Shown: positions 17,810-21,558, counted from the first letter of the stretch. The stretch is DNA of 64,000 bases from Chlamydiia bacterium (GCA_044359535.1 JBIKLZ010000003.1:21290-85289), one strand, 5' to 3'. The notes: generated from the letters alone by a model not told the origin. Translations and numbers: made by a program.

Positions 17810-19195
17810 TTAACAAATAACCACATTTTTCTTAAGGGCAGAGTTAAATGATCTCCCTAAGAAGAGGGCAATCCCTAGCCAAAAAAGGAGCAGTGGAAAA
17901 CAAAGGGATGCACTCATCATTAAATAATGAGCTTTTCCGGCGGCGGCTCCAAAGGTCGATTGCAGTGGGGATAAGGACATGTTGAACATTGATCCCATTT
18001 GCTTTGAAGATCTAGATCCAAAAGTTTCTACCCATGCTTGAGCTTTAAATTTCACATCATGAGAGGTAGGGATATAAAGCTGCTTTAGAGCAGGTCCGTT
18101 TAAAGCGTAGTTGATTGCTTTTGAACCCACCATCAAAACAAAAAGAAATGAGAGGGAATTAAAGGTTAAAAATCCTAAAAGGGCTGAGCCAACAATAAGA
18201 GGCATTGATGCCAGAGCTATTTTTACACCTAAATACCGTGTAATATTACTTATTCCAAAAAGGAGGCAAAAAAGGGATACAGAGTTGACACTCGATGCAT
18301 AAATACTTAAATAGTTACTTAATTCCACTCCAGAATAGACAGAACTTGCTGCAATTTTGAAATTAAAATCAAAAATAGTGACAATCACTTCATAGATAAA
18401 ATTCACTCCAAAAATCCCTAAAAGGTAGCGATGATTAAGAAGTAGTTTTAGTCCATCAAGAAATCTAGCCTCGTGCTTTACTTCGTTTTTCAAAGGATTG
18501 ACCCCTTCAAAAGAGTGCAAAAGATGTTTTGGTGTAGCCTTTAAAAAGTATCTCACAAGAGGGATGATCATAAAGGTTAATAGAGAAAGCAATAAAACAG
18601 AAATGGCATCAGAAGTATGAGCTAAACGGTGAGGTAATCCTCCAATGCTATAAGGAAAAATAATTCCTCCAATTTGACCTAAGGCAACAACGAGAGGAAA
18701 ACCCTTTTTTGCAGAGATCGGGGAAGTTGTGTCTGTTGAAAATGCCCAAAATAAAGCAACAACTAACGAACCAAAGCTCTCTCCAAAAAGATAGAATAGA
18801 TAGCCTAAAATCTTTGTCCCAAAAGGATAGAGTTCTTTAGCCCCTTGGAAATTGTATAAAATTAGACTAAACACAACTAAAGCTATTGAATACAATGTTG
18901 GAAGAAGGATCAGCATTTTTTCTCTTGAATTCTTTTCAAGGAGCTTTGTATAAAAAATGACCATGGGCATTAACCCTATCAATGAAACGGTTTTTGCAAA
19001 AGGTAGTTGGATACTTCCTACAAAATGGACAAAAAGGGCATCTTTTAGTGGACGAATAGTCCAATAAATTCCAATGATAAAAGCAAAGATGAGCCCCATC
19101 CTTAAAAATTTTTTAAATTCTTCCCTTTCAAAGGTTCCAAAATTAAATCTGCATATATATTGAAAAAATCTTATTAAATAGTCTTTTTTATTCAT
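17810..19195 (-). CDS. TLC/NTT-family (ATP/ADP-translocase-like) nucleotide transporter homologue, paralogue 1
   Basis: About 12 hydrophobic segments. KKFLRMGLIFAFIIGIYWTIRPLKDALFV and GSKAINYALNGPALKQLYIPTSHDVKFKAQAWVETFGSRSSKQMGS align with the rickettsial/chlamydial Tlc/Npt motifs KKFLP...NY..LR..KD..VV and SKG.KYSLFD.TK.MAYIPLD..LR.KG.A.V.V.G.R.GKSGG. Start is set at ATG 19195 (MNKKDY): AGGAGA lies 6 nt upstream, and this start matches the paralogue 2 N-terminus. Track start is 19231. Confidence 0.8.
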   Translation of the reverse strand: MNKKDYLIRFFQYICRFNFGTFEREEFKKFLRMGLIFAFIIGIYWTIRPLKDALFVHFVGSIQLPFAKTVSLIGLMPMVIFYTKLLEKNSREKMLILLPTLYSIALVVFSLILYNFQGAKELYPFGTKILGYLFYLFGESFGSLVVALFWAFSTDTTSPISAKKGFPLVVALGQIGGIIFPYSIGGLPHRLAHTSDAISVLLLSLLTFMIIPLVRYFLKATPKHLLHSFEGVNPLKNEVKHEARFLDGLKLLLNHRYLLGIFGVNFIYEVIVTIFDFNFKIAASSVYSGVELSNYLSIYASSVNSVSLFCLLFGISNITRYLGVKIALASMPLIVGSALLGFLTFNSLSFLFVLMVGSKAINYALNGPALKQLYIPTSHDVKFKAQAWVETFGSRSSKQMGSMFNMSLSPLQSTFGAAAGKAHYLMMSASLCFPLLLFWLGIALFLGRSFNSALKKNVVIC

Positions 19196-19233
19196 TTTCA
19201 TTCTCCTTTTTGAAAGATCATAGACTAACATAT

Positions 19234-19277
19234 TTGATTTTATTTATGTTCTTGATATAATCGATAACACATATCGA
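19234..19277 (+). promoter_or_regulatory. candidate lysR promoter with overlapping perfect dyad (LTTR-box-like operator)
   Basis: TTGATT (19234-19239), 16-nt spacer, TGaTATAAT extended -10 (19253-19261). This is immediately followed by, and partly overlaps, TCGATA-ACACA-TATCGA (19261-19277), which is 6-bp arms around 5 nt and contains T-N11-A. Confidence 0.35.
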
Positions 19278-19307
19278 AAAAATTGATTTGATTTAAAGGG
19301 GCTAGGC

Positions 19308-20186
19308 ATGAGAAATTTAGACAAAAAAAAAGTAGATGAAGGGTTAGAAGAGCAAACGATGCAAAAATTAGAACTCTCATTAAAAAATCTAAGGGTTGCC
19401 GATGCTGAGTTGTTTATTTCCGCTGCAAGGATGGGCAATCTTGGAAAAGCTGCAAAAATCCATTTTTTAAGTCAAAGTGCAGCAAGTACTGCAATTTTTA
19501 GGTTAGAGACGGCCTTTAATATCCCATTGTGCACCCATCAAAAGAAAAAATTCACCCTTACAAATGAAGGTGAAATTCTCCTATTAAGGCTGGAAAAATG
19601 GATAGAACAATTAAAAAAAATGGTTTTAAGAAGTGAGGATGTCCCCATACGCATTGTAACAACACATGCCATTTCAATTGTGGCTGTCCCTGGATTGTTT
19701 TCTTTAGGCAATGTAGAGTTTAAAAATCAACGTATAGAAAAGGCTTATACCGCTGTTTTACATGATGAGGCCGATATTGCCCTTGTTTTGGATAATGCTT
19801 CCTGGAGTGGTTTAGTGGCTACTGAAGTGGGAAGAGGGACCTTTCAATTGTACTCTAAAGATCCACATGTCCCTTTAAAGGGTGTATTGCTTCCAGAAGA
19901 TCAAATGGAGGTCCTTGCTTTACAACAAACATGGAAAGAGGTCAAAGGCTATTTTTTACCTGTAAAAGCTCGGATACCGAGTTGGTCTTTGATCGCAAAT
20001 ATTTGCTTTGAATCTGATGAAGTGGGATTTCTCCCAGATTTTCTTGCTAAAAAGTATCATCTTCATCCGGTAATGTGGCAGCCTCCTTCATCAAGATATA
20101 GGATTTTAGTGTTACACAAAAATACTGACGATCAAAAGGAGAAGTTTGAAAGGATCATTACAAGGCTTAAAGAGCTGTTTTCATAA
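19308..20186 (+). CDS. LysR-type transcriptional regulator
   Basis: N-terminal wHTH LRVADAELFISAARMGNLGKAAKIHFLSQSAASTAIFRLETAFNIPLCTHQKKKFTLTNEGEILL, followed by a periplasmic-binding-protein-like effector domain. Alternative start at 19359. Confidence 0.85.
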   Translation: MRNLDKKKVDEGLEEQTMQKLELSLKNLRVADAELFISAARMGNLGKAAKIHFLSQSAASTAIFRLETAFNIPLCTHQKKKFTLTNEGEILLLRLEKWIEQLKKMVLRSEDVPIRIVTTHAISIVAVPGLFSLGNVEFKNQRIEKAYTAVLHDEADIALVLDNASWSGLVATEVGRGTFQLYSKDPHVPLKGVLLPEDQMEVLALQQTWKEVKGYFLPVKARIPSWSLIANICFESDEVGFLPDFLAKKYHLHPVMWQPPSSRYRILVLHKNTDDQKEKFERIITRLKELFS

Positions 20187-20193
20187 GGTTTTT

Positions 20194-21558
20194 TCAACAA
20201 ATAAGAGAATTGTTTTTTACAGCAGTAGTAAAGGTTCTTCCTAAAAGAAGGGCAATCCCTAACCAAAAAAGGAGTAGGGGAACACAGACAATTCCACTCA
20301 TTAGAAGGTAATAGGATTTTCCAAGGGAGGAGCCAAAAACCGATTGGAGGGGAGAAAGTGACATGTTAAACATGGAGCCTATTTGTTTTGATGTTCTAGA
20401 TCCAAAGGTTTCTATCCATGCTTGAGCTTTAAATTTCACATCATGAGAGGTGGGTATGTAAAGCTGCTTTAATGCAGGGCCATTTAAAGCGTAGTTGATC
20501 GCTTTTGATCCAACCATCAGGATGAAGAGAAAGGATAAAGAATTTAAGGTTAAAAATCCTAAGAGGGCCGAGCCAACAATAAAAGGCATAACGGCTAAAG
20601 AGACTTTCACCCCTAAAAATCGTGTAATATTACTTATTCCCAAAAGAAGAGAGAGTAAAGAAACGGTGTTCACACTTGATGCGTAAATGCTCAAATAATT
20701 TGTAAGGGCAACCCCTGAATAAAATGAACTTGCTGCGATCTTAAAATTAAAGTCAAAAAGGGTGACAATCACTTCGTAGATGAAGTTGACTCCAAAGATC
20801 CCAAGAAGATAGCGGTTTTTTAGAAGTAATTTTAAACCATCGAAAAATCCGGTTTCATGGGGAGGTTCTTTTTGTACAGGGGATAAAAGCTCCTTTGGGG
20901 TGGTTTTTAATAGAGCGTAGACAAGGGGAATGATTAAAAATGTCAACAAGGATAAAAGCAATAGGGAAAGAAAGTCGGTTACAAAGCCAAGTCGATGGGG
21001 CAGTCCACCGATAGTAAAAGGGAAAAGTATTCCCCCTACTTGACCTAAAGCAACCACAAGGGGAAAACCCCGTTTTGCTGATACAGCAGCGGTTGAATCT
21101 GTAGAAAAGGCCCAAAATAAAGCGACAACTAAAGAACCAAAACTTTCAACAAAAAGGTAAAAAAGGTAGCCAATTAAGGAAGAGATGAAAAATAGGGGTG
21201 CAGATCCTTGAAGAAATAGGATAAGGAGGCTAAAAGCAAAGAGTATAATAGAATAAATCAAAGGGAGAAAAAGGAGCATTTTTTCTCTTGAAAAGGTCCC
21301 TAAAAGCTTTGTATAGAGGATGACAATAGGAAGAAGGGCAATAACTGATACGGTTTTAGCAAAAGGAAGATTTAATTGACCGGCAAAGTGGATAAAAATA
21401 GCATCTTTTAACGGGCGAAGGGTCCAGTAAATCCCAATGATAAAAGCAAAGATAAGGCCCAATTTTAAGAATTTTTTAAATTCTTCTTCTTCGAAAACAC
21501 CGAAATTAAACGTACATAGTGTTTGGAAAAAGGAGAGAAAAATCGATTTTCTTTTCAT
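20194..21558 (-). CDS. TLC/NTT-family nucleotide transporter homologue, paralogue 2
   Basis: 454 aa, collinear with paralogue 1 and identical at most positions by eye. Examples are FGSLVVALFWAFSTD, GFPLVVALGQ.GGI.FP and the stretch MVGSKAINYALNGPALKQLYIPTSHDVKFKAQAW.ETFGSR.SKQ.GSMFNMSLSPLQS. Confidence 0.8.
   Translation of the reverse strand: MKRKSIFLSFFQTLCTFNFGVFEEEEFKKFLKLGLIFAFIIGIYWTLRPLKDAIFIHFAGQLNLPFAKTVSVIALLPIVILYTKLLGTFSREKMLLFLPLIYSIILFAFSLLILFLQGSAPLFFISSLIGYLFYLFVESFGSLVVALFWAFSTDSTAAVSAKRGFPLVVALGQVGGILFPFTIGGLPHRLGFVTDFLSLLLLSLLTFLIIPLVYALLKTTPKELLSPVQKEPPHETGFFDGLKLLLKNRYLLGIFGVNFIYEVIVTLFDFNFKIAASSFYSGVALTNYLSIYASSVNTVSLLSLLLGISNITRFLGVKVSLAVMPFIVGSALLGFLTLNSLSFLFILMVGSKAINYALNGPALKQLYIPTSHDVKFKAQAWIETFGSRTSKQIGSMFNMSLSPLQSVFGSSLGKSYYLLMSGIVCVPLLLFWLGIALLLGRTFTTAVKNNSLIC

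Follow-up and report, generated by a model that had tools for sequence, protein, structure and literature searches.

A 64,000-nt stretch of a Chlamydiia bacterium genome (GCA_044359535.1, JBIKLZ010000003.1:21290-85289), hereafter the window, carries two genes for short transporters of the nucleotide transporter (NTT)/TLC family, TLC1 and TLC2, which lie on the same strand on either side of lysR, a gene for a LysR-type transcriptional regulator (LTTR) (Table 1). The original prediction, made from the sequence alone, had described this arrangement, and all three open reading frames (ORFs) were found where it had placed them, with the divergent TLC1/lysR intergenic region at exactly 19196-19307 (112 bp). 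The longest TLC1 ORF spans 17810-19231 on the minus strand and would encode 473 amino acids (aa); alignment of 33 orthologous intergenic regions identifies a conserved ATG at 19195, with a GGAG Shine-Dalgarno sequence upstream, giving a protein of 461 aa. TLC1 and TLC2 share 72% protein identity over their full length and 71.5% DNA identity, in line with their earlier description as very similar paralogues, and beyond these two no TLC homologue was found across the window. The chlamydial markers in the window, equivalogs of the GreA fusion, the TopA/SWIB fusion and sigma-66-type RpoD, all score above curated cutoffs.

Table 1. Features of the TLC1-lysR-TLC2 locus, in window coordinates
Feature	Position	Strand	Details
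TLC1, short NTT/TLC-family transporter	17810-19195	-	461 aa from conserved start; LysR-linked, operator-bearing paralogue
TLC1 Shine-Dalgarno sequence, GGAG	19203-19206	-	Conserved column 7-9 nt upstream of conserved ATG
Predicted TLC1 -10 element, TAGTCT	19222-19227	-	Family consensus TAtnCT; conserved columns in 33 loci
lysR promoter-like site, TTGATT, 16 nt, tgTATAAT	19234-19261	+	10/12 consensus matches; extended -10
Conserved 52-nt block, candidate operator	19238-19289	-	Position weight matrix score 55.5; single match in 64-kb window
Dyad 2, ATCGATTATATCAA	19252-19265	-	Consensus TCGA-N5-TCGA; activation-site-like
Dyad 1, ATCAATTTTTTCGAT	19273-19287	-	Consensus ATCGA-N5-TCGAT (ATC-N9-GAT / T-N11-A); recognition-site-like
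lysR, LysR-type transcriptional regulator	19308-20186	+	292 aa; PF00126
TLC2, lineage-specific paralogue	20194-21558	-	454 aa; convergent with lysR; Pfam TLC
Secreted low-complexity protein gene	21573-22376	-	14 bp upstream of TLC2; 22-bp overlap with oppA-like gene
Shortened OppA-like SBP_bac_5 gene	22355-23596	-	SBP_bac_5 129.8 bits
Promoter-like site, TTGATA, 16 nt, TATACT	23628-23655	-	Upstream of oppA-like gene; 10/12; consensus match only

In this region the window is matched with 100% identity by five independent metagenome contigs drawn from five samples, and contig L001 covers the whole of TLC1 and lysR together with 750 nt of TLC2 without a mismatch, which argues that the paralogue pair is real and disposes of the earlier concern that it might be a recent assembly duplication. 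Paralogues of this kind are able to mislead assemblers, as contig L004 illustrates by jumping from TLC2 to TLC1 sequence at one breakpoint, but an artefact arising from a collapsed or duplicated repeat is extremely unlikely here, and was dropped, given that the two copies differ at more than a quarter of their nucleotides, that their flanks differ, and that the arrangement is base for base the same in all five contigs. L004 itself (Logan SRR27489781, 1481 bp) aligns with window positions 19220-20697 and shows no difference from the window in the intergenic region, in lysR or in the final ~255 nt of TLC2; after the single breakpoint it follows TLC1 to the contig end, carrying the TLC1 base at 53 of 53 discriminating sites. 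A chimeric short-read assembly joining the two paralogues is the more likely origin of this contig; the other candidate is gene conversion from TLC1 to TLC2 in a related strain.

Both transporters exceed the gathering cutoff of 21 bits for Pfam TLC (PF03219), TLC1 at 77 bits and TLC2 at 59.8 bits. In hhalign, a profile of their family and the rickettsial Ca. Megaera Tlc align across 388 columns at 24% identity (probability 92%), and the profile matches the sequences of the solved AtNTT1 (E 1e-12) and Chlamydia pneumoniae NTT1 (CpNTT1, E 4e-9); these two were reached only with the family profile, a single-sequence phmmer search against the PDB giving no match. An AlphaFold2 model of TLC1 (predicted local distance difference test score, pLDDT, 77; predicted template modelling score, pTM, 0.81) has AtNTT1 (9j3m/9j3l, template modelling (TM) score 0.77) and CpNTT1 (9j3n, TM 0.71) as its top Foldseek matches, and the remaining proteins of the major facilitator superfamily (MFS) in the comparison lie below both, at TM 0.45-0.63. 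Four charged residues of AtNTT1 that are important for NTT transport, K155, E245, E385 and K527 (PMC4256464), were mapped to the solved chain by one constant offset for all four and align with K68, E139, D276 and K398 of TLC1. Apart from the one E-to-D change that this entails, the four positions are kept in both TLC1 and TLC2, and they are invariant in 83 of 83 family sequences.

Like the canonical NTT/Tlc proteins (AtNTT1, CpNTT1/Npt1, PamNTT1 and rickettsial Tlc1), with which they share full-length homology, fold, the four charged residues and occurrence in obligate intracellular bacteria, TLC1 and TLC2 carry RxLKD-type N-terminal and YIP..K.K C-terminal motifs. Unlike them, they are ~50-70 residues shorter, mainly in loops, show 20-25% identity and fail the model for canonical exchangers, TIGR00769. 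Canonical lengths are 513 aa for PamNTT1, 536 for PamNTT3, 526 for SnNTT2 and 510 for Megaera Tlc. Both the homology to ATP/ADP translocase-type carriers and the shortness relative to Tlc/Npt proteins of about 500 aa had been proposed beforehand. Judged by modelled fold and profile, TLC1 and TLC2 are true yet distant members of the NTT/TLC superfamily, predicted to be 12-helix MFS-type carriers; by sequence they are not canonical NTTs and make up a short branch of their own.

When 1.84 billion representatives were searched exhaustively, the family fell into essentially one 50%-identity cluster (704 bits), the next match scoring 378 bits and leading into a continuum of relatives mostly 430-470 aa long; 228 clusters have E < 1e-30. 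Against the supplementary sequences (FASTA) of Major et al. 2017 (PMC5381601), TLC1 is 66.6% identical to Estrella lausannensis CRX39564.1 and 66.4% identical to Caedibacter acanthamoebae AIL12708.1, members of an uncharacterized clade of ~468-aa proteins; taken together, the two window proteins show 63-67% identity to these two sequences. Its identity falls to 31% with the Babela massiliensis protein, 26% with PtNTT4, 24% with SnNTT4, 23% with the NAD+/ADP carrier PamNTT4 and 23-24% with PamNTT1, PamNTT3 and SnNTT2. The motifs ESFGS, FDFNFK and LKQLYIPT are common to the window, Estrella and Caedibacter proteins, and related motifs occur in Babela, PtNTT3/4 and TpNTT4. The phylogenetic placement among characterized NTTs that had been suggested as a check was made by neighbour joining, in a tree where the family joins the Babela protein, PtNTT4 and some short, unnamed homologues, apart from the canonical clade and from the PamNTT4 and SnNTT4 branches. 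This position in the tree matches a group reported to hold diatom NTT3/4(/5) plus “Chlamydiae, Alpha- and Deltaproteobacteria” (PMC5381601).

The clade of Major et al. (Estrella, Caedibacter, Babela, PtNTT3/4, TpNTT4/5) is the family of the window proteins, with shared motifs; the paper gave a tree only, with no function or gene context. The LysR linkage and the candidate operator described below are added here. Within it the Babela and diatom proteins are distant from the window proteins (26-33% identity), and the diatom proteins have long N-terminal extensions. No member of the TLC1/TLC2 family is present for Simkania in the same dataset, and a homologue search with a Parachlamydiaceae copy gave, among the matches listed, metagenomic relatives only and no cultured strain.

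Two orthology assignments were considered and rejected. PamNTT4 of Protochlamydia amoebophila, an NAD+/ADP exchanger, resembles the window proteins in that it is chlamydial, non-canonical and short, at 431 aa, and has an (I/L)RP(I/L)(R/K)D motif, and it shows that divergent NTTs are able to carry cofactors. It differs from them in its low identity (22-23%), in its separate branch with Methylobacterium-type proteins and in scoring 42 bits on the family hidden Markov model (HMM) vs. 843 bits for Estrella; PamNTT4 is therefore not an orthologue, and its NAD+ annotation cannot be transferred to TLC1 or TLC2. SnNTT4 was rejected because it aligns only in part, at 24% identity, reaches 38.8 bits with the family HMM and lies on a separate branch. 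With both options gone, the earlier statement that the substrates cannot be read from sequence stands.

A comparative scan of one genome per GTDB species yielded 80 species-level loci with close relatives of the transporter (61-69% identity), mostly in metagenome-assembled genomes (MAGs) of several Chlamydiota families, with several from Alphaproteobacteria/Finniella and one labelled Gammaproteobacteria. In 48 of the 80, the gene directly upstream of the transporter, ~100 bp away and divergent from it, encodes a LysR orthologue (45-62% identity). Clustering of the 835 flanking ORFs shows LysR to be the sole conserved neighbour, the next commonest family occurring in 6 loci, and the neighbourhood offers no clue to the substrate. 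Across pairs of loci, LysR identity rises with transporter identity (r=0.70, Mantel p=0.001), which fits the expectation for a pair inherited as a unit.

The divergent intergenic region contains a conserved 52-nt block with the consensus AAATCGATTTTTTCGATtTt..atATCgAaTATATCgAcaaTACAAATAaaa. TCGA cores occur in it four times, at block positions 4, 13, 26 and 35, giving two TCGA-N5-TCGA dyads with a centre-to-centre distance of 22 bp, or two helical turns. Mean column identity is 0.84 in the block vs. 0.54-0.61 in other intergenic DNA, despite protein identities of only ~60-75%. Matches to a position weight matrix (PWM) of the block are confined to LysR-transporter intergenic regions and always have one orientation; they include loci outside the training set and three contig-edge loci in which lysR would lie beyond the contig end. 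Nothing comparable was found by the PWM upstream of TLC2 or of LysR-unlinked copies, where the weak scores of 27 (L009) and 23.5 (L075) contrast with 35-72 for true sites. In most loci, 85-86 nt separate the box centre from the ATG of the transporter, and the position of the box is fixed across more than 40 loci.

Palindromes as short as the two in this block are able to form hairpins, and the block might in principle be a structured RNA in the 5′ untranslated region, such as a riboswitch or leader, to which the adjacency of LysR would be incidental. The pattern of variation speaks otherwise: across the dyads, 63 cells are unpaired vs. 2 that are compensatory, and the covariation score equals that of shuffled controls. 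Because pairing is broken and not compensated, the block appears to be conserved as a protein-binding sequence and not as an RNA structure. Rfam gives no match in the intergenic region, the block lies upstream of the conserved TLC1 -10 element, and it is found only where LysR is present; the RNA reading was rejected as very improbable.

The TLC1 promoter has a recognizable, conserved -10 element and a poor -35. If transcription starts, as predicted, ~7 nt past the -10, the centre of dyad 1 would be at ~-65 and that of dyad 2 at ~-43, with dyad 2 reaching the poor -35. On the opposite strand, dyad 1 falls at +5 to +20 of the predicted lysR transcript and dyad 2 overlaps the -10 of the lysR promoter-like site, so that autoregulation is predicted. 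LTTRs characteristically use a T-N11-A recognition site near -65 and a second, activation site near -35. The locus resembles classical LTTR divergons (CbnR-cbnA, BenM-benA, AmpR-ampC, and NodD with its ATC-N9-GAT nod box) in its divergent regulator and target, its T-N11-A dyad near -65 with a second site near -35 overlapping the regulator promoter, and its modelled full-length LTTR fold; LysG-lysE, in which an LTTR controls a divergently transcribed transporter, is the closest in kind. Unlike in those systems, the proposed target here is an NTT-type carrier in obligate intracellular bacteria, and the two-gene unit is inherited, and apparently passed between phyla, as a cassette. The conserved linkage, the double T-N11-A dyad and the correlated divergence all favor the earlier proposal that paralogue 1 and its divergent regulator form an LTTR-target pair.

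The window LysR contains a PF00126 (HTH_1) domain at residues 32-89 (46.9 bits vs. a cutoff of 26.6), and its M1 is nearly invariant among orthologues, most of which carry both PF00126 and the effector domain PF03466 in precomputed annotation. Many residues past position 110 are invariant across orthologues, which argues for a conserved ligand pocket. Its AlphaFold2 model (pLDDT 76.5) shows the LTTR order of elements and aligns over ~300 columns with full-length LTTR structures including ACIAD0746, CrgA, OxyR, CcmR, CbnR, BenM and LysG (E ~5e-12); the low global TM of 0.27-0.33 is expected for a flexible, hinged two-domain protein.

In cultured chlamydiae, LysR (“pecT”) has been reported only in Simkania and Criblamydia, in a survey that does not mention transporters (Domman & Horn 2015, PMC4652624). 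It is the sole paper linking LysR with chlamydiae in the literature searched, which contained none joining LysR with nucleotide transporters in these bacteria. The original view that LTTRs are scarce in Chlamydiae accordingly holds for cultured strains, yet the particular LTTR of this locus is common in environmental Chlamydiota MAGs.

TLC2 differs from TLC1 in its surroundings. It ends 7 bp from the lysR stop codon, starts 14 bp past the stop codon of the secreted low-complexity protein gene, and has no operator detectable by PWM and no obvious Shine-Dalgarno sequence. The upstream genes (21573-23596) are probably co-transcribed with it, as had been suggested for this convergent paralogue: the 14-bp gap, the missing operator and the promoter-like site before the oppA-like gene are all consistent with such a transcript. 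The OppA-like protein is short (413 aa), matching only approximately the first 250 of 543 positions of the OppA model and 155 of 368 of SBP_bac_5. The secreted product has 267 aa, a signal peptide and a low-complexity C-terminal half with GNTWTND/GQTWTND-like repeats, and has no family match.

The family tree pairs TLC1 with TLC2 as sisters, and since their nearest relatives (L008, L023 and L035) hold one LysR-linked copy each, the duplication is specific to the window lineage. At highly conserved family positions, TLC1 and TLC2 deviate at 12 and 9 of 223, respectively, vs. a median of 2 and a maximum of 10 in other members, an excess in both copies that is compatible with divergence after duplication. 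Several other chlamydial genomes hold two or three copies (L012, L014 and L064 on one Rhabdochlamydiaceae chromosome; L065 and L073; a tandem pair in L026), typically some with LysR and operator and others without. Repeated duplication with loss of regulation seems to be common in the family.

The best explanation of the locus as a whole, which we consider fairly probable, is an LTTR divergon that controls an NTT-type carrier, accompanied by an unregulated duplicate of that carrier. LysR, presumably as a tetramer, would bind the two TCGA-N5-TCGA dyads in the divergent region and, by analogy with classical LTTR divergons, repress its own gene; a small-molecule effector bound by LysR would then activate transcription of TLC1. 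With its own regulator and conserved operator, TLC1 is probably expressed in response to a metabolite. TLC2, arising by duplication within the lineage and free of the operator, would be expressed from the upstream oppA-like operon, leaving the cell with one effector-controlled and one effector-independent copy. The cargo of both carriers is most likely a host-derived nucleotide or nucleotide-like phosphorylated cofactor, which they would import. What is new is a known LTTR architecture on an uncharacterized NTT subfamily, inherited as a cassette; in the literature searched, no dedicated transcription factor was found for canonical NTTs or other such nucleotide transporters.

A number of observations pull in the opposite direction. 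Approximately 30 of the 80 loci have the transporter without LysR, implying that regulation is not obligatory for transporter function. The window operator has one degenerate half-site per dyad (TCAA instead of TCGA), and its lone match in 64 kb is at chance level (0.4-0.8 expected); as the match in a single genome is not significant, the argument rests on conservation of the operator across species. The promoter hexamers are consensus matches only, and the PF03466 effector domain of the window LysR reaches 17.5 bits, under the cutoff of 28. On the transporter side, TIGR00769, which describes canonical nucleoside triphosphate/diphosphate exchangers, has a cutoff of 387.2 bits; the Megaera Tlc used as a positive control scores 412.1, vs. 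68.5 for TLC1, 55.9 for TLC2 and 74.5 for the family representative P0259. Identity to all characterized NTTs is only 22-26%, and no member of the clade has a known substrate or an experiment in the literature searched. SnNTT4, itself a non-canonical NTT, failed to transport nucleotides (PMC5381601), so nucleotide transport by TLC1 and TLC2 is not to be assumed.

The transporter data, and the separate clade that the family occupies in the tree, favor a version of the scheme in which regulation is as proposed while the carriers move another anionic or phosphorylated host metabolite, or export one. The shared charged residues would then reflect a common MFS/NTT mechanism and not a common substrate. 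PtNTT3/4, which share the motifs of the clade, are functionally uncharacterized, a 2019 diatom review listing them without function, and LTTR-controlled divergent exporters exist, LysG being among the fold matches. We nevertheless hold this version to be rather unlikely, because the four residues needed for nucleotide transport by AtNTT1 are invariant with a single E-to-D change, the two ATP/ADP translocators are the nearest structures by a clear margin, and the family is found, like nucleotide parasitism genes, in obligate intracellular bacteria (Chlamydiota and Caedibacter/Finniella-type symbionts).

The regulatory step also has an alternative: LysR could chiefly repress TLC1 until a ligand lifts the repression, or it could be an autoregulated factor that needs no ligand. 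The lysR promoter is overlapped by both dyads, and the second of them adjoins the TLC1 -35, where a bound protein could occlude RNA polymerase; there is no known ligand, and the effector domain of the window LysR is sub-threshold. A -10 element lacking a good -35, with sites at ~-65 and ~-43, is by contrast the layout of an activator-dependent LTTR promoter, and the effector domain is strongly conserved across orthologues, down to the invariant residues past position 110. Control of this kind is an improbable substitute for ligand-dependent activation of TLC1, which we prefer.

Elsewhere in the window, Rfam RF03531 (“C. difficile sRNA included into helicase gene”) matches at 43090-43187 on the plus strand, at 66.2 bits vs. 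a gathering cutoff of 65.2; the match lies inside a PcrA/UvrD-type helicase ORF (41335-43464) and is probably conserved coding sequence and not a small RNA. In a 543-aa ORF at 26840-28471 (minus strand), similarity to ThyX is limited to the C-terminal ~85 residues and, at 62 bits, stays under the cutoff of 87.9; the product may be an unusual or fused ThyX-like protein. Three consecutive overlapping ORFs of 508, 191 and 419 aa occupy 13417-16761 (plus strand) before a 5-formyltetrahydrofolate cyclo-ligase gene; the 508-aa protein has no NCBIfam match at E<=1e-10.

The distribution of the pair extends beyond Chlamydiota. Transporter, LysR and operator occur together in five Alphaproteobacteria/Finniella MAGs (L039, L043, L051, L058 and L059) and in the Gammaproteobacteria MAG (L078). 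In the tree, the copies from Alphaproteobacteria group as one clade inside the chlamydial diversity and keep LysR and operator, a nesting that suggests the cassette as a whole has passed from one intracellular bacterium to another. The direction suggested here is opposite to the one that Domman & Horn 2015 inferred for a chlamydial LysR (PMC4652624). That the family truly occurs outside Chlamydiota is supported by the Caedibacter acanthamoebae sequence, which comes from a named organism and not from a MAG bin. The nearest relatives of the window proteins (L008, L023 and L035) are lake MAGs labelled in NCBI as Chlamydia trachomatis isolates (MiH-/ME-), and other carriers of chlamydial type are labelled Verrucomicrobiae, Acidobacteriaceae and Geitlerinema; these labels look like taxonomic mislabels or binning errors and are not to be taken at face value.

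A bolder proposal, which we put forward tentatively and regard as a possibility more doubtful than not, is that the LysR-transporter pair is a horizontally mobile “sense-and-import” cassette of unrelated obligate intracellular bacteria, its substrate being a host metabolite new to NTT-type carriers and the same metabolite being bound by the LTTR. Its carriers may include Chlamydiota, Caedibacter/Finniella-type Alphaproteobacteria and possibly others. If this were true, the LTTR would be a direct biochemical probe for the substrate of the whole NTT clade, the diatom NTT3/4 relatives included.

In chlamydiae, rickettsiae and microsporidia, nucleotide transporters are a hallmark of parasitism for energy and metabolites, and obligate intracellular bacteria are usually described as poor in metabolite-sensing regulators. 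The LTTR divergon proposed here would tie a deep-branching NTT subfamily to its own one-component regulator and operator, not only in dozens of chlamydial species from the environment but also in amoeba symbionts among the Alphaproteobacteria. It provides two handles: operator and regulator are testable with E. coli reporters, and the ligand of the regulator would be a shortcut to the substrate of the transporter. On this reading, obligate intracellular bacteria would keep, and exchange, at least one metabolite-sensing circuit for a carrier of host metabolites.

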